DNA of 64,000 bases from Acidobacteriaceae bacterium (GTDB lineage Bacteria > Acidobacteriota > Terriglobia > Terriglobales > Acidobacteriaceae), in contig JAYWAL010000023.1 in assembly GCA_043782485.1 (NCBI GenBank), forward strand, positions 38,336 through 102,335. The letters run 5' to 3'. The notes under the pieces were generated by a model. It did not search any database, was not told the origin of the DNA, and was given only the letters and a program-made list of their open reading frames with translations. Positions 5,847 to 49,073 of this stretch are shown piece after piece. Position numbers and translations under genes: made by a program. The first letter of the stretch is position 1. Each line of letters starts with the position of its first letter.

Positions 5847-7964
5847 TTAGACGACTGACCGCACTAACTCCACCTCAACCAAGACGGAATAAAACGTTGC
5901 GGAGTTGCCTAGGTCGGTAAGTTTTTCTGAGGTTAAGGCGTTTATATTTTTTCCTCCGGCGGAAAGCTTGGCCCAGTTCAAGCGCGACGCCACCGTCCCC
6001 GGCTGCACCGAACCGTTCACATGCGCTCGCAGGATCAGGTCTCCCCGGTCGTTGAAGGTGCGCACTGAATCGCCATGCTGAATCCCACGAGCCAGAGCAT
6101 CGGCAGGCGCTATCTCTAACAAACCAGTGTCCTCCAGCTCCGCCACGGAGGGCGTATTGCAGAAAGACGAATTCAGGAAGTTGTCCGCTTTGCGCGCCAG
6201 CAGCTCCAGGGGAAACCGCTTCGCCGCCGCCGTGTGGCGGGATTCCTCCGGCGGCTCAAACGACGCCACCGGGTCCAGACCAGCGTTTTTCAGCTGTTCG
6301 CTGTAAAACTCAGCCTTGCCGCTGGGAGTGCCGAAGTTGCCTTCCGCAAATGGTTGAAAAGGCAGGGGCTCGCCGTTGTTGGCCATCCCGCTACTGAAAT
6401 TCAGCCGCGCATGCCCTTCTTTCTCGAGCCGCGCCCGGTCGATTCCCTTGAGCCTTGGCCCGCCCCCGGCAATGGCCCGGTCGATCATGCTGTCGTCCGT
6501 CTCGGTAAATTCACTCCCTGTAAAGCCCATGCGCGCCGCCAAGGCACGGAACAGGTCCACGTTCGACCTGCACTCCCCCAAGGGCTGGATGGCGGGCTGC
6601 GATACCTGCAAATAATAGTGGCCGTAAGACTGGACTAAGTCCTTGTGTTCAAAGAACGTAGTTGCCGGCAGGACAATATCAGCGTAGTCGGTGGTGTCGG
6701 TGAAAAACTGTTCGTGAACAACAGTGAATAAGTCCTTTCTTTTCAATCCGGCGATCACCAGGTTGTGGTTCGGAGTCACCGCCGCCGGGTTACAGGCATA
6801 GACGAACAAAGCCTGCACCGGAGGGTCGTTCGTCTCGGTTAGCGCGAGGCCGAGCCGATTCATGTTGATAACCCTCGCAGGACGCCCTAGCGGGCTCTCT
6901 GAGGCCATCAAGTCGGTTCGTTCGAGCGCATCCCTGTCCAGCCCAAACGACCCGCTGAGGGACATCTGGAGGCCTCCACCGACGTCTTTCCACGACCCCG
7001 TCAGGCACGGAAGCATGGCAACCGTCCGGGTGGCCATCCCGCCCCGTTCAGAGCGCTGGACACCGTAGTTGAGGCGAATTACGGCTGGCCGGGTGGTCGC
7101 GTATTCGCGAGCGAGCTTGCGAATGTCGTCGGCCGAGATTCCCGTCCATTGAGCGGCGCGTTCGGGGGGATATTCCTGGACTTTCGCCCGTAACTCATTG
7201 AAACCATGGGTGTACCGCGCTACATAGTCGGCGTCATGGAGGTTTTCGTTGATGATGACGTGCATCATGGCCAACGCCAGCGCGGCGTCGGTTCCTGGAT
7301 TGATGGGCAAATACCAATCCGCAGCGGCGGCGGTGCGGGTCTTGTAGGGGTCGATCACCACCAATTTGGCGCCCTGGCGGCGGGCCTCGGTGATAAACGG
7401 CCACAAATGCACGTTGTTGCCGTGGATGTTGCTGGCCCACGCGATGATGTAGCGCGACTCGCGGAACTGCTCCGGCTCGGTGCCCATTTTGACGCCCAGA
7501 ACGGACCTCAGGCCCGCTTCCCCGGCCGCCGAACAAATGGCACGTTCCAACTGGGATGCACCCAGGCGGTGGAAGAATCGCCGGTCCATGGAGCCGCCGT
7601 TGAGGACGCCCAGGGTCCCGCCGTAGGAATAGGGCAGGATCGACTCCGGTCCGTGCTCGGCGGCAATACTCTTCAGGCGCGAGGCAATTTCGTCGAGGGC
7701 TTCCTCCCAGGAAATGCGGACAAAATCCTGGCCGTTGCGATGGCCTTCGCCTTTGGGAGCCACGCGACGCATGGGGTAGAGCACGCGATCCGGCGAATAC
7801 ACGCGGTCCAGATATTTTGTGACCTTGGCGCAGAGAAATCCGCGCGTGACCGGGTGCTTGGGGTCGCCCTGGAGCTTAGTGGCGCGGCCGTCTTCCACTG
7901 TGATGAGGACTCCGCAGGCATCTGGGCAGTCGAGCGGGCAGGCGGCGTGGACTACGGACTTCAT
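5847..7964 (-). CDS. molybdopterin (bis-MGD) oxidoreductase family protein, cytoplasmic type
   Basis: 705 aa. N-terminal 4Fe-4S motif CPLDCPDACG...C, then AICSAAGEAG (Cys at the likely Mo-ligand position), then a C-terminal MopB barrel-like region. No twin-arginine signal. Confidence 0.85.
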   Translation of the reverse strand: MKSVVHAACPLDCPDACGVLITVEDGRATKLQGDPKHPVTRGFLCAKVTKYLDRVYSPDRVLYPMRRVAPKGEGHRNGQDFVRISWEEALDEIASRLKSIAAEHGPESILPYSYGGTLGVLNGGSMDRRFFHRLGASQLERAICSAAGEAGLRSVLGVKMGTEPEQFRESRYIIAWASNIHGNNVHLWPFITEARRQGAKLVVIDPYKTRTAAAADWYLPINPGTDAALALAMMHVIINENLHDADYVARYTHGFNELRAKVQEYPPERAAQWTGISADDIRKLAREYATTRPAVIRLNYGVQRSERGGMATRTVAMLPCLTGSWKDVGGGLQMSLSGSFGLDRDALERTDLMASESPLGRPARVINMNRLGLALTETNDPPVQALFVYACNPAAVTPNHNLVIAGLKRKDLFTVVHEQFFTDTTDYADIVLPATTFFEHKDLVQSYGHYYLQVSQPAIQPLGECRSNVDLFRALAARMGFTGSEFTETDDSMIDRAIAGGGPRLKGIDRARLEKEGHARLNFSSGMANNGEPLPFQPFAEGNFGTPSGKAEFYSEQLKNAGLDPVASFEPPEESRHTAAAKRFPLELLARKADNFLNSSFCNTPSVAELEDTGLLEIAPADALARGIQHGDSVRTFNDRGDLILRAHVNGSVQPGTVASRLNWAKLSAGGKNINALTSEKLTDLGNSATFYSVLVEVELVRSVV

Positions 7965-13658: not shown

Positions 13659-14466
<808 letters not shown>

Positions 14467-17526: not shown

Positions 17527-18075
17527 TTAAAGAAGCGGCTTGACCATTGCTTGAACCGCATCGGTGTATTCAAAACCAATGATTTTTTGGCTTAAAACAC
17601 CTTGGCGGTCGTAGATCAGGGTGGTCGGCAGGCCCTCGATTCCGCCAAATTTCTGCTTCAAGTCCTCGGCGGCCACGGCTAACGGGTAGCGCACGCCGAT
17701 TTTCTTGGCGAACTGTACGGGGTCTTCGGTGTCGGGCATGACATCGAATTTGAAGCCGACGACGGCGAAGCCTCGGGCGGCGTAGAGGTCGGCCAGCTTT
17801 TGGTATCCGGGCATTTCTTTTTTGCAGGGCTGGCACCAGGTGGCCCAAAAATCGATGAGCACGACTTTACCGCGCAGGTCGGCGGAAGTGATGGTTCGGC
17901 CCTGCAAGTCCGGCAAGGTGAATTCCGGCATCTGCGAGCCAATTTCGCCCATAGCTACGGCTGCCTTTTTCGGCGATGGCGGGGAGTTCGCCGAATGCGA
18001 ATTGCATCCGGCGAGTCCCGCCACGGTCAGGCACAACAGGAAGCCGCGTGACATTAGACTTTGAAGTTTCGTCAT
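17527..18075 (-). CDS. TlpA-like periplasmic thiol:disulfide oxidoreductase (thioredoxin fold)
   Basis: Lipoprotein-like signal peptide (...LAGC). Active site WATWCQPCKKEMP. Its ATG directly abuts the TAG stop of the upstream gene. Confidence 0.85.
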   Translation of the reverse strand: MTKLQSLMSRGFLLCLTVAGLAGCNSHSANSPPSPKKAAVAMGEIGSQMPEFTLPDLQGRTITSADLRGKVVLIDFWATWCQPCKKEMPGYQKLADLYAARGFAVVGFKFDVMPDTEDPVQFAKKIGVRYPLAVAAEDLKQKFGGIEGLPTTLIYDRQGVLSQKIIGFEYTDAVQAMVKPLL

Positions 18076-18603
18076 CTATTCCTTCTTCTGAATTTCCAGA
18101 ATCAGCAGCGTCAGCGCGGCCGGGAAGTCTTTCTTTCGCTTCCCTTCCGGCTTTTTGTAAAGCTGCCCGCGAAGCGTGACCTTCGTCGGAGCGCCCGCCA
18201 GGGATTCCAACCCTTTCGAGAGCTCGGTGGGAGAGAACGTGAAAGACCGGTTCGGTTCCACCTGTAGGGCTAGGTTTCCCGATGCGTCTTTGACGATCTT
18301 GCCGCGCGCGAGGATGTCCATCTCGGCGGCGGTCACGCCACTGTCGTAGGTCGCCTTCAAAAGCGCGACGGGATCAATTTGCCCGTCTTCTTTGGGAGTG
18401 ACCTGCACTTTCCCGTCGATCAAACTGACTTCTACATTTTGAACGCCAGACTGGCGTCCTAGGTGCTGTTTCACACCGAAGGCTCAAAAGTTTCAAGTCA
18501 TGCCTTCGACGCGCATTTCAATATGCTTGACTTGCGCTTCAGCCACGGGCACAACCAGAATTGCGCCGAGCAGAAGCAGGAAAGCTGCGGATTTGCGTTG
18601 CAT
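18076..18603 (-). CDS. secreted heavy-metal-associated (HMA) domain protein with two in-frame TGA codons at the CxxC positions (candidate UxxU selenoprotein)
   Basis: ATG 18603 with AAGGAG upstream. The translation is MQRKSAAFLLLLGAILVVPVAEAQVKHIEMRVEGMT-TGA-NF-TGA-AFGVKQHLGRQSGVQNVEVSLIDGKVQV... The TGA codons are at 18493-18495 and 18484-18486. The same frame continues into track ORF 18076..18474. Confidence 0.6.
18441..18459 (-). promoter_or_regulatory. candidate SECIS-like stem-loop
   Basis: The mRNA forms GGACGCCA-GUC-UGGCGUUC (8 bp including one G.U). It starts 24 nt after the second TGA. Confidence 0.35.
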
Positions 18604-18616
18604 TATGATTCTCCTT

Positions 18617-18668
18617 GATAGCTGTCAGCTGTCAGCTATGAGCCGTCAGCTCTTGATAGCTGATAGCC
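18617..18668. repeat. direct heptad array gatagct gtcagct gtcagct atgagcc gtcagct (ctt) gatagct gatagcc
   Basis: 7-nt periodicity read directly from the sequence. It fills the gap between the OMP gene stop (18673) and the HMA gene RBS. Confidence 0.85.
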
Positions 18669-18672
18669 GTTC

Positions 18673-19608
18673 TTAAAGATGCATTCGAAACTGCTGCGTG
18701 ATTCCAAAACTGATATGACGCTTCACGGGCATGAATGTTGCTCCCGCTCCGTGCGCCACATCCCAATCCATGCCTAACCATGCGTGCACTCCCGGACGCA
18801 GGCCAACATAGCTGGTGACCCCGGCTTGCAATTGGTCTCCCCCGCTGCCGCGCTGCGTGACCCCGGCGATGCGGTCGTCTTGCGAATGCAGCCACGTCAG
18901 CACCGGGCCAATGAACCACTCCCGCGCGCCGTTCTTCGACTCATACGGACGGTAGGAGAGCCAGAAACGCGATCCAACTTCACTGCCGAGCCGAGTCGCT
19001 TGCGCTCCCTCCGTTCGCACGAGCGCGTGAAAGTCTTCATCGGCAACCAGCCGCCGAATGTTGAACAGCCCCGTATACGTGCCGTTCGCCGCCAGGAATA
19101 AATCCGTCGAGCCTGAACCCGGCTGCAAGCCGGCGGGCAGCCGGATGCCGGTATCGGCGTTCATGTTCGTGCGTCCGGTTGGCAACTTGGGGCCAAACGT
19201 GACCGATGCCTGCGTCGTACCTCGCGGCGAGTCACGCCGGAAGAAGCGGTACTTCGCCAGCAGCATCACATCCCCGAGTCCCGTTCCCCCAACCGTCGGC
19301 GCGGCTGAGGGGCGATAACGATTCGTCACGATGGGAACTACAACAGCGAAATCCCAATCCTGATGAAATCCCCAAGTGAAATTGAAGTCCCCTTCGTGTG
19401 AGAACGTGGGCCGCGCGGTTCCAGTAATTCCGCCCGGCACGCGCGCGCGGGTGGTGAAGATGGAATTGTAAGAAACGAGCGCACCCCCCGGAAACAATGG
19501 CGGTGCAGTCTCCGGAGCTGGACCCTGCCCCCAAGCGGCAGCCGCGGTCAGCAAAAACAGCGGCAGCCACTGGGCGCATTTTCTACTTTTGGTATTTCCA
19601 AATTTCAC
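18673..19608 (-). CDS. outer-membrane beta-barrel protein (MetA-pathway/transporter-like OMP, tentative)
   Basis: Start re-set to GTG 19608 (GGAGG 8 nt upstream; VKFGNTKSRKCAQWLPLFLLTAAAAWGQ signal peptide). Alternating beta-strand pattern with C-terminal ...ISFGITQQFRMHL. Confidence 0.6.
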   Translation of the reverse strand: MKFGNTKSRKCAQWLPLFLLTAAAAWGQGPAPETAPPLFPGGALVSYNSIFTTRARVPGGITGTARPTFSHEGDFNFTWGFHQDWDFAVVVPIVTNRYRPSAAPTVGGTGLGDVMLLAKYRFFRRDSPRGTTQASVTFGPKLPTGRTNMNADTGIRLPAGLQPGSGSTDLFLAANGTYTGLFNIRRLVADEDFHALVRTEGAQATRLGSEVGSRFWLSYRPYESKNGAREWFIGPVLTWLHSQDDRIAGVTQRGSGGDQLQAGVTSYVGLRPGVHAWLGMDWDVAHGAGATFMPVKRHISFGITQQFRMHL

Positions 19609-19681
19609 AGTGTTTCCTCCCCAAAAAACGACGATTCCAGGCACACGAATGCGTGCCGACGAGAAACGACGGGAGGTCTGG

Positions 19682-20047
19682 CTAGATACGAAGAGGCTGG
19701 AGCGTGGGTGGAGAAAAGACCGGCGGCGCGTGATTGCGTTCGGCAATCGTGCGTTCGGACGACGGAAAGACCGTCATATCCGAGTAGACTGGAAGCACGG
19801 CCAACACCACAACGTTGTGCGATAGCCCGTGCCCAAACGACGGCAGCATAAACGGAGCCTGCGCCGTCGGCATGGTCTGGCAACAATCCATGCCCTGCTT
19901 CGCGTCCATTTGCCCGTGGCGCGCACACTGCATCTCGGCGCAACACCGCATCGCCTGTTCAGGCGTCGTCATGGCCTCGCAGTCGAGCGCGTAGGTAGTG
20001 AGCGCGACTACCAGCAACCACTGCAGAGTGATGTGAGCGAAACGCAT
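19682..20047 (-). CDS. small secreted Cys/Met/His-rich protein
   Basis: Signal peptide, then AMTTPEQAMRCCAEMQCARHGQMDAKQGMDCCQTMP. It is the first gene of the apparent operon with the OMP, HMA and TlpA-like genes. Confidence 0.5.
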   Translation of the reverse strand: MRFAHITLQWLLVVALTTYALDCEAMTTPEQAMRCCAEMQCARHGQMDAKQGMDCCQTMPTAQAPFMLPSFGHGLSHNVVVLAVLPVYSDMTVFPSSERTIAERNHAPPVFSPPTLQPLRI

Positions 20048-22264: not shown

Positions 22265-22324
22265 GTCAGCTGATAGCTATCAGCCGTCAGCTATCAGCTA
22301 AAAAGCTCTTGCTGATGGCTGACA
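22265..22324. repeat. heptad array gtcagct gatagct atcagcc gtcagct atcagct, spacer, then inverted gctgatg gctgaca
   Basis: Read directly from the sequence. It fills the gap between the lipoprotein gene stop (22328) and the permease start (22237). Confidence 0.85.
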
Positions 22325-48539: not shown

Positions 48540-49073
48540 TTAAGGCAATGCCGCCAGCAGGTCAGCCATCGGAGCATTGTCCGCGAAAGTTTCGTTGGCA
48601 TGCGCGAATATGTCTACGTTACCGGGCGCAAAAATAAAGCTGCCTCCCAGCTGAAACGGGTTCTTGCCCAGCTTGTGCTGCCGGACACCAGCGGCCTTCA
48701 CCCGCGCGCGAGCTTGCCAGTTCTCAGAACGGAATATGTGCAAGACGGAGCCAACTCCAAGATCCAGAGCGTTGTAGGTAACCCGATCCAGATCCACAAG
48801 CAGCGGGAATGTGATGCCGACATCTGCGCGGAAAATGCGGGCATAGTCCATATCACCCAAGCTCACCGCGGCCAGGCGCGCGCCTTTCAGTTGGAACCCT
48901 TTTTCGCGTTCGCGCAACTGCGCGACATGCTCGCGGCAGAACACTCACCCATAGTGCCGCAAAAATGCCAGAACGCATGGCGCAGTGGCCCAAAGCGAAC
49001 CCAGACGGACCTGCTTTCCGTCGGAATCTGGCAAGACGATTTCAGAAAGCTTCGCGCTGAGGGTTGTTTCCAT
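48540..49073 (-). CDS. Prx-like (AhpC/TSA_2-type) thiol:disulfide oxidoreductase with in-frame TGA at the first redox Cys position (candidate UxxC selenoprotein)
   Basis: Track ORFs 48945..49229 and 48540..48944 are in the same frame, separated only by TGA (48945-48947). Together they read METTLSAKLSEIVLPDSDGKQVRLGSLWATAPCVLAFLRHYG-TGA-VFCREHVAQLRE... The family motif is RH(F/Y)GCxxCRE. The joined length is 177 codons counting the TGA. Confidence 0.7.
48918..48939 (-). promoter_or_regulatory. candidate SECIS-like stem-loop
   Basis: The mRNA forms CUGC(C)GCGA-GCAUG-UCGCGCAG: 8 bp with one bulged C and a 5-nt loop. It starts 6 nt after the TGA. Confidence 0.4.

Follow-up and report, generated by a model that had tools for sequence, protein, structure and literature searches.

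Two in-frame UGA codons at the metal-ligand positions of an exported HMA-domain protein from Terriglobia: a probable two-selenocysteine selenoprotein family

When an open reading frame is interrupted by two TGA codons, both placed exactly on the metal-ligand cysteines of a heavy-metal-associated (HMA) domain, is it a decayed remnant, a case of altered decoding, or a genuine selenoprotein gene? The question is raised by a locus on the minus strand of an Acidobacteriaceae contig (assembly GCA_043782485.1, JAYWAL010000023.1), at positions 18076..18603 of the 64,000-nucleotide stretch analysed here, which is referred to as the window. The evidence collected below makes it very probable that the locus is a genuine gene for a protein with two selenocysteine (Sec) residues, while the full statement, which adds a periplasmic metal-binding role for the product, is held with somewhat less confidence and is still considered probable.

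The complete gene comprises 175 codons, including the two UGAs, and closes with the stop codon TAG at 18076-18078. Its start codon, an ATG at 18603-18601 read directly from the window sequence, has the Shine-Dalgarno sequence AAGGAG 7 nt to its 5' side (18611..18616, minus strand). Translated on the minus strand, the frame reads MQRKSAAFLLLLGAILVVPVAEAQVKHIEMRVEGMT-(TGA)-NF-(TGA)-AFGVKQHLGRQ, the two TGAs being its sole lesions, and when U is written at both of them the product begins with MQRKSAAFLLLLGAILVVPVAEA and continues as QVKHIEMRVEGMT-U-NF-U-AFGVKQHLGRQSGVQNVEVSL. The predicted product is composed, in this order, of a Sec-type (export) signal peptide (residues 1-23, 18535..18603) with an MQRK start, a hydrophobic core and an AEA-Q cleavage site, an HMA domain (residues 30-84, 18352..18516) carrying the GMT-U-NF-U loop, a short linker, and a family-specific C-terminal domain of 84 residues (18079..18330), all on the minus strand. 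UGA1 (18493..18495) and UGA2 (18484..18486) occupy the first and the second ligand position, respectively, of the canonical GMT-C-xx-C motif. In fact, the version of the protein with Cys in place of U passes the Pfam HMA model PF00403 (33.3 bits against a cut-off of 24.8, residues 30-84), its best sequence matches among solved structures being the ATP7B domains (E = 1e-27 summed) and CopZ, and a residue-level alignment with the ATP7B metal-binding domains, CopZ and MerP brings both TGAs onto the two Cys of GMTCxxC. The first-pass annotation, which was made from the letters and a list of open reading frames (ORFs), had claimed just this, namely that the TGAs fall on both ligand cysteines and that the frame has no other lesion; translation and HMA alignments bear it out, and its positions for the start, the TGAs and the stem-loop downstream were all correct on re-reading of the sequence.

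The C-terminal domain gave no Pfam match even at E <= 10. An exhaustive search of 1.84 billion representatives found it in only 35 clusters (50% identity), almost all of them members of the same family, and the three large repeat proteins that match it weakly offered only Ig-like or low-complexity hints.

Conservation across relatives separates a gene from a decaying one. A scan of one genome per GTDB species yielded 80 loci, all from metagenome-assembled genomes of Acidobacteriota/Terriglobia (Sulfotelmatobacter, Acidoferrum, Acidiferrales, Angelobacter and others), with the exception of three labelled otherwise, and in 80 of the 80 a TGA stands at both ligand positions in the same frame, far more often than chance would allow. 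The start ATG is kept in 73 of 74 sequences, GGAG-type sites lie 5' of it in the orthologous loci, and the residues of the signal peptide vary between species while its frame and character are kept. Moreover, in the codon analysis P363, R375, V376 and T380 are 100% conserved as amino acids with four codons used for each of them, which is the signature of translation upstream of the TGAs. Downstream of the TGAs, too, the protein sequence is kept while synonymous codons change. A pseudogene or a sequencing error could be ruled out as an explanation, since both TGAs are conserved in 80 species. The earlier argument that random decay would not produce this pattern is thereby upheld, both by the presence of the two TGAs in every one of the 80 loci and by the coding conservation upstream of them; as for the starts of the orthologues, this conservation reaches the upstream ATG.

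A GTG further downstream, at position 18474, is the basis of an alternative in which the product is a 132-residue cytoplasmic HMA fragment, the upstream 129 nt being a decayed remnant or leader, so that the locus would be a truncated pseudogene or a neo-gene. The program-made ORF list of the window gives only this 132-aa ORF for the locus, and a protein search, which returned 3189 proteins at E <= 0.001 of which 120 were listed, shows how general such calls are: most of the 120 listed matches have been called, by the NCBI, ENA and JGI pipelines, as 132-aa proteins starting just after the second TGA, and they are publicly named 'heavy metal-associated domain-containing protein' or 'hypothetical protein'. 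Nevertheless, across 80 species the 36 codons ahead of the TGAs are conserved at the protein level and vary synonymously, the ATG, the Shine-Dalgarno site and the signal-peptide character being kept as well, while inspection of the sequence upstream of GTG 18474 found no Shine-Dalgarno site. A 132-residue product would also miss strand 1 and the entire metal loop of the HMA fold; the relatives with Cys at both positions are full-length genes without interruption, and random decay is not expected to leave every lineage with exactly two TGAs, one on each ligand codon. A truncated product is accordingly hardly credible, and this alternative may be taken as effectively refuted already.

A few of the listed matches are full-length proteins with Cys at both sites (P0013, P0055), and three JGI metagenome proteins (P0007, P0009, P0087) carry W at both sites, reading GMTWNFWAYGVK, presumably where a gene caller for short contigs read TGA in another genetic code; entries of this type bear the names 'cation transport ATPase' or 'hypothetical protein'. 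The divergent representatives P0161 and P0137 turned out to be frameshifted or chimeric fragments. Among the metagenome contigs, the gene copies of L102 and L103 are likewise frameshifted or chimeric, one of them apparently being joined to unrelated sequence exactly at CAGTCTGGCGTTCAA, and are likely to be assembly artefacts or decayed copies.

The alternation of Sec and Cys across orthologues, which had been proposed as a check on the two-Sec gene, was seen at each site separately. Both positions are TGA in all 81 sequences of the UxxU form. In the CxxU form (loci L085-L090) the DNA reads GMT-TGC-AAC-TAT-TGA, that is GMT-C-NY-U with NY replacing NF, so that UGA1 has become TGC and UGA2 is kept; in the CxxC form (TGC..TGC, GMT-C-NF-C; L082 and L091-L094, with a second CxxC lineage in L083 and L084) both positions are TGC. 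The two positions alternate between Sec-UGA and Cys independently, and they do so among sequences of one 90%-identity cluster, the comparison being made over the 132-aa part. This cluster, to which the CxxC form P0013 belongs, includes 132-residue members, and it is their DNA that has the CxxU reading. CxxC is rare, a scan for its DNA motif finding a single locus in the metagenome collection. The UGA replaced first is the one farther from the hairpin described below, as judged from L085-L090 against L082 and L091-L094.

Both UGAs are probably decoded as selenocysteine by SelB and Sec-tRNA, directed by an mRNA element in the roughly 50 nt downstream whose core would be the hairpin GGACGCCA-GUC-UGGCGUUC. 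Codon entropy was examined in 81 UxxU sequences, comparing the 16 degenerate codons after the first UGA with the other 151. The mean normalised entropy was 0.22 in the former against 0.66 in the latter, and no other sliding window of the gene falls as low as the 16-codon stretch (permutation p < 1e-5, Mann-Whitney p = 6e-8). The stretch under this synonymous, RNA-level constraint lies at 18439..18489 on the minus strand and extends from the TTT between the UGAs through CGC CAG TCT GGC GTT CAA. Within it, TTT is used in 81/81 sequences, TAC in 77/80, GTG in 81/81, CAC in 69/69, CGC in 81/81, CAG in 81/81, TCT in 79/79, GGC in 80/81, GTT in 73/81 and CAA in 79/80, while elsewhere in the gene the same amino acids are written with 2-6 codons.

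The putative core of the selenocysteine insertion sequence (SECIS), hereafter hairpin 2, occupies 18441..18459 (minus strand) and has an 8-bp stem, GGACGCCA/UGGCGUUC, closed by the loop GUC or, in another reading, A-GUC-U. The whole stem-loop, GGACGCCAGUCUGGCGUUC, begins 24 nt past the second TGA, has a free energy of -10.3 kcal/mol (z = -3.7) and was recovered by RNAalifold as a conserved 8-bp hairpin. In an alignment of 73 sequences its pairing is 97-100% overall; six core pairs (48-53/57-62) are 100% paired, and 2 of the 73 do not form the two basal pairs. All the changes observed are compatible with pairing (A-U to G-U, G-U to G-C or A-U, G-C to G-U, and one G-C to C-G), variation within the 73 sequences being one-sided, and the loop appears as GUC, GGC or GGA. 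Furthermore, the hairpin persists even though the peptide that it encodes shifts from RQSGV to RQAGV and RLDGV. The paralogue L098a, the first of two tandem copies in the genome GCA_973680735.1 (L098), illustrates this best, as it has the most divergent hairpin: there GRQSGV has become QRLDGV and the hairpin reads CAACGCC-UGGAU-GGCGUUG, with the loop UGGAU and a compensatory swap of the basal pair from G-C to C-G.

According to the published bacterial SECIS (bSECIS) model, the apical loop follows the pattern N1-G-[G/U]-N-N2 and lies 16-37 nt from the UGA (PMC13188914). For UGA2, hairpin 2 fits this model in loop, stem length (8 bp), free energy and distance, its loop being 32 nt away. One hairpin may serve both UGAs, as the first-pass annotation had considered; of that reading the conserved structure and its placement for UGA2 stood, and the placement for UGA1, 41 nt from the loop, did not.

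Between UGA2 and hairpin 2 and within the constrained stretch there is a weaker stem, hairpin 1 (18462..18477, minus strand), of the form GGNGU/RCNCC or, in another register, GGGGUG/CACCUC. Its GTG and CAC codons are invariant. At the middle pair most sequences have G.A, 6 have U-A and 1 has C-G; hairpin 1 may have some role in the element. The apparent covariation of GGG/CTC with GGT/CTA fits no single consistent register and may be phylogenetic in origin. Adding a basal helix UUUUGA/UCAAAA in a three-way model gives 95% pairing, without covariation.

With a translated gene and a conserved RNA structure at hand, the next point is which residue is inserted at the UGAs. A second gene of the window, at 48540-49073 on the minus strand, had been noted for a TGA on a redox cysteine, and this was borne out: its in-frame TGA (48947-48945) lies at the first Cys of a CxxC motif, HYG-U-VFC (LRHYG-U-VFCREH), and a CGCGC-AGUU-GCGCG hairpin, a GC stem resembling hairpin 2, starts 20 nt past it. 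The product is a second candidate selenoprotein, a SelL-related redox protein that reaches 114 bits against the cut-off of 120 of NF040769, and ORF callers break its gene into pieces of 94 and 134 aa. In an Acidiferrales genome, a glutaredoxin-like gene (L096:16018-16254) also has an in-frame TGA, QPG-U-MFC, of a YruB/Uxx-star-like type, some 5.6 kb from the cassette of genes to which the HMA gene belongs. Sec use has been recorded in Acidobacteria (PMC1794560), including Occallatibacter riparius (PMC12013277). Taken together, these observations lend good indirect support to Sec decoding in the organism.

The glutaredoxin-like gene is part of a cluster of short gene calls found in Candidatus Acidiferrales (L096:14562-17269, L097:12360-15067), 4-6 kb downstream of the cassette and past transposases. 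Its members further comprise a Pyr_redox_dim fragment, a zf_CopZ protein, a MerB-like protein and a MacB-type permease, and it looks like another selenoprotein-containing metal or organometal system.

As regards the use of TGA elsewhere, the first-pass annotation had stated that it still acts as a stop in the window, and the counts agree with this: the stops of 29 confident window genes are TAA in 17, TAG in 10 and TGA in 2 (at 58.6% GC), and those of 51 crude non-overlapping ORFs are TAA in 26, TAG in 18 and TGA in 7. This rarity of TGA stops, unusual for such a GC content, may come from selection against UGA stops in a lineage that decodes UGA with Sec or with a suppressor, or from small numbers. 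Since the in-frame TGAs of window genes are confined to Cys positions and TGA is the stop of other ORFs, a general reassignment of UGA was considered and ruled out. The window also holds a molybdopterin oxidoreductase gene of 705 residues (5847-7964, minus strand; Fe4S4, Molybdopterin and Molydop_binding domains), which has no in-frame TGA.

A narrower alternative holds that the UGAs are decoded by a suppressor or reassigned tRNA and not as Sec, that is as Cys by a selC*-like tRNA, as Ser or Ala by the acidobacterial allo-tRNAs, or as Trp by near-cognate reading, which would make the product a CxxC-like or a non-liganding HMA protein. Acidobacteria do have unusual 8/4 and 9/3 tRNAs that have been proposed as nonsense or missense suppressors, and tRNA-Cys(UCA) mimicking tRNA-Sec occurs in other phyla (PMC5389517); TGA is, besides, infrequent as a stop among the confident window genes, and the Sec machinery was not found in the window. 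On the other hand, the groups from which selC* tRNAs have been reported are Firmicutes, Thermodesulfobacteria, Nitrospirae and Proteobacteria, and Acidobacteria are not among them (PMC5389517). In both window genes the in-frame TGA occurs only at Cys-ligand or redox positions, never at Trp or elsewhere, code 11 otherwise leaves the long ORFs intact, TGA does terminate some window genes, and a conserved SECIS-like hairpin follows the UGAs. Decoding by a suppressor is thus regarded as quite improbable, and Sec as the residue probably inserted.

Several results nevertheless weigh against the two-Sec gene with its metal-binding product, and they are best considered together. Regarding the machinery, ARAGORN finds no tRNA gene in the 64-kb window, Pfam scans of 20 large window ORFs returned neither SelA nor SelB nor SelD, and a scan of 60 fetched loci yielded no selA, selB or selD and, by ARAGORN, no tRNA-Sec. 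Regarding the RNA element, the 41 nt between UGA1 and the loop of hairpin 2 fall outside the 16-37 nt consensus, and Rfam gave no match, SECIS or other, either for the window at gathering thresholds or for 18380-18540 at E <= 10. The proposal to look for a SECIS with covariation across orthologues was answered in part: hairpin and constraint are conserved, and covariation is weak, since the element is nearly invariant. The 73 sequences contain zero double changes in pairs, and a set of 28 diverse sequences has two pairs with double changes, a non-significant number that is matched by 73 of 500 shuffles; the case for the putative element is one of constraint and pairing compatibility rather than of compensatory-change statistics. 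Moreover, the CxxU and CxxC forms all keep hairpin 2, so that loss of Sec is not accompanied by loss of the SECIS-like structure, a test that fails or is uninformative because the CxxC lineages look recent and are few. Regarding the protein, the AF2 model of the Cys form has a mean pLDDT of 51, with values of 75-88 confined to residues 100-140; its N-terminal half is poor because just 5 alignment rows cover it, and a Foldseek search of the model against the PDB gave nothing below E = 0.3, hence no fold match. Finally, the nature of the metal, the partnership with a reductase and the role of the C-terminal domain are suggested by genomic context.

The distance of UGA1 makes the more interesting question how this codon, 41 nt from the hairpin loop, gets decoded. 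A collapsible spacer is one conceivable answer, speculative and in our judgement rather unlikely, by which one SelB-binding hairpin would serve two UGAs 9 nt apart. With the ribosome at UGA1, hairpin 1, about 15 nt downstream, would be folded and would pull hairpin 2, 33 nt away in sequence, near to the mRNA entrance; with the ribosome at UGA2, hairpin 1 would be melted and hairpin 2 would be reached over its 24-nt linear spacer. Such a mechanism would explain why the synonymous constraint extends over all 50 nt instead of being limited to hairpin 2, why the distance of UGA1 exceeds the canonical 16-37 nt, and why UGA1 was lost first in one Sec-losing lineage (UxxU to CxxU to CxxC). To our knowledge, the mechanism of bacterial tandem Sec insertion has had no direct test, and we know of none described in reviews.

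The genes around the locus bear on what the protein may do. It is the third gene of a four-gene cassette kept in 71-81 of 82 loci, all four being on the minus strand in the window. The first, at 19682..20047 and in the same position in 71/82 loci, encodes a small secreted Cys/Met/His-rich protein of 121 residues (CCAEMQCARHGQMDAKQGMDCC) that gave no family match in Pfam or NCBIfam. The second (18673..19746, probable start near 19608), upstream of the HMA gene in 81/82 loci, encodes an outer-membrane barrel-like protein of about 310-357 residues; the window copy has no Pfam match of its own and is 51% identical to an L098 protein carrying PF13557 ('Phenol_MetA_deg', an outer-membrane 'MetA-pathway' barrel family), so that it may be placed as a remote member of this transporter family. 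The fourth gene, at 17527..18075 and downstream in 80/82 loci, encodes a TlpA/ResA-like thioredoxin-fold lipoprotein (lipobox LAGC, active site WCQPC; Pfam AhpC-TSA/Redoxin, NCBIfam ResA and TlpA), and its ATG follows without a gap on the TAG that ends the selenoprotein gene. The wider neighbourhood varies, with ribosomal protein genes in the window and mobile-element genes or transposases elsewhere, and no P-type ATPase, merR, merT, merA or cop gene is fixed beside the cassette across the loci examined. In the divergent genome L098, the two tandem UxxU paralogues (L098:2375-2896 and L098:3952-4461), with a gene for an NHL-repeat protein between them, share one such cassette with the barrel and the TlpA-like protein.

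Tandem 7-nt repeats, AGCTGWC, were also observed in three intergenic regions of the window (14393-14453, 18614-18671 and 22268-22299), the repeat AGCTGACAGCT having 12 matches at <= 1 mismatch against 0.74 expected. One of these arrays lies between the barrel and the selenoprotein genes; it is absent there in 79 of the 79 orthologous loci checked, and for this reason it is taken as a genome-specific intergenic repeat.

In this context, the most likely function is that of a periplasmic binder of soft metals, of the MerP or CopZ kind, with a diselenolate site. After export, the two selenolates would form a high-affinity site for a soft metal of the Cu(I) or Hg(II) type; the co-transcribed TlpA-like lipoprotein would most likely keep the U-xx-U pair reduced, preventing or reversing the formation of a diselenide in the oxidising periplasm; and the barrel together with the small Cys/Met-rich protein would deal with the metal at the outer membrane or with its passage through it. 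The main functional rival makes the UxxU pair a redox centre, a diselenide/diselenol couple of very low potential which, with the TlpA-like protein, would serve periplasmic thiol-disulfide or selenium chemistry. It draws on the fact that most bacterial UxxC/UxxU selenoproteins are redox proteins (PMC9312934), on the translational adjacency of the thioredoxin-fold reductase gene in 80/82 loci, and on the lack of any P-type ATPase, merT, merA or cop gene with a fixed place beside the cassette. However, the fold and the loop are of the metal-binding HMA type (GMTCxxC) and not of the thioredoxin type, the outer-membrane channel and the Cys/Met/His-rich small protein of the cassette are typical of metal handling, and the catalogued relatives are classed as metal-binding. 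A redox centre is therefore judged unlikely, and soft-metal binding by the exported protein is the function preferred here.

The consequences concern annotation in the first place, since entries from soil and peat Acidobacteria called as 132-residue fragments would correspond to a 175-residue exported selenoprotein with two Sec, and corrected calls would add a widespread family to the prokaryotic selenoproteome. The dominant Terriglobia of soils would then be investing selenium in periplasmic metal handling. The family also provides an unusually clean data set for two Sec residues 9 nt apart, since it spans more than 80 species, occurs naturally as UxxU, CxxU and CxxC and has an invariant hairpin; were the collapsible spacer real, this abundant soil family would be a natural and comparatively documented model of bacterial tandem Sec insertion, as well as a case of a periplasmic diselenolate metal site. 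Such a site would possibly be adaptive in Acidobacteria that live under acidic conditions, because selenols stay ionised at acidic pH. In peat and permafrost soils, which are acidic and mercury-relevant, the protein is a candidate for very high-affinity binding of Cu(I) or Hg(II).

With respect to known systems, the nearest NCBIfam models are CopZ, MerP, NF045683 and NF041115, and the window protein scores far below the cut-offs of all of them. MerP (TIGR02052) shares with it a signal peptide, a single HMA domain, a GMTCxxC-type loop and the periplasm as its location, the alignment running from residues 7-90 of the window protein to 5-86 of 92 and thus including the signal peptide; it is also the best NCBIfam match of the paralogue L098a. 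Nevertheless, the cut-off of 92.55 is not reached (37.4 bits for the window protein, within a range of 37-47), and MerP differs in having Cys instead of Sec and no extra C-terminal domain, while merR, merT and merA are not adjacent to the window gene. The CopZ/Atx1 copper chaperones have the same fold and loop, as do the metal-binding domains in ATP7A/B and in CopA, but all of these are cytoplasmic proteins with Cys ligands and P-type ATPase partners, whereas the window protein is exported, carries Sec according to the reading proposed here and has no ATPase neighbour; against the CopZ models NF047957, NF033795 and NF033794 it reaches 28-47 bits with cut-offs of 85-95, the signal peptide and the second domain being extra.

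The partnership presumed for the TlpA-like lipoprotein has a counterpart in periplasmic copper delivery by TlpA-ScoI/PcuC, where a TlpA-type reductase anchored in the membrane maintains the paired Cys ligands of a copper protein in reduced form. The clients differ: there they are Sco1/CoxB, with thioredoxin or cupredoxin folds and Cys ligands, while the client presumed here from gene adjacency would be an HMA protein with Sec.

Among selenoproteins, the first-pass annotation knew the UxxU motif only from eukaryotic SelL, and in this it has to be corrected, since bacterial UxxU families are already catalogued, including the HMA-like NF041115 and also NF045683. SelL shares the motif with the window protein, and a SelL-related (NF040769) UxxC gene lies in the same window; SelL and NF040769, however, have a thioredoxin-like (AhpC/TSA_2) fold and a redox function, not an HMA domain, and the SECIS of eukaryotic SelL is found in the 3'-UTR. 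NF045683, a MerT/CopZ fusion-like heavy-metal transport selenoprotein, has a Sec-containing HMA module in common with the window protein but is a membrane-protein fusion of 235 positions, against which the latter reaches 35.3 bits with a cut-off of 375.

The closest likeness is with NF041115 ('UxxU_metal_bind'), a metal-binding (seleno)protein which, like the window protein, has an HMA-like domain with Sec at both ligand positions. It is listed as 'putative mercuric reductase/metal-binding protein, UxxU', the type having first been predicted in an Olavius algarvensis symbiont (PMC9312934, PMC13188914). Since this family is catalogued, the HMA-type UxxU selenoprotein as a kind is not new. The family described here differs from it: the window protein scores 35.1 bits against the NF041115 cut-off of 95, with residues 24-69 alone aligning (38.7 bits for L098a); NF041115 is a single-domain model of 74 positions, to which the window protein adds a signal peptide and the orphan C-terminal domain of 84 residues; and the window family belongs to a different phylum, being almost entirely of Terriglobia, stands in a fixed cassette with a TlpA-like reductase and a barrel, and has until now been annotated as truncated.

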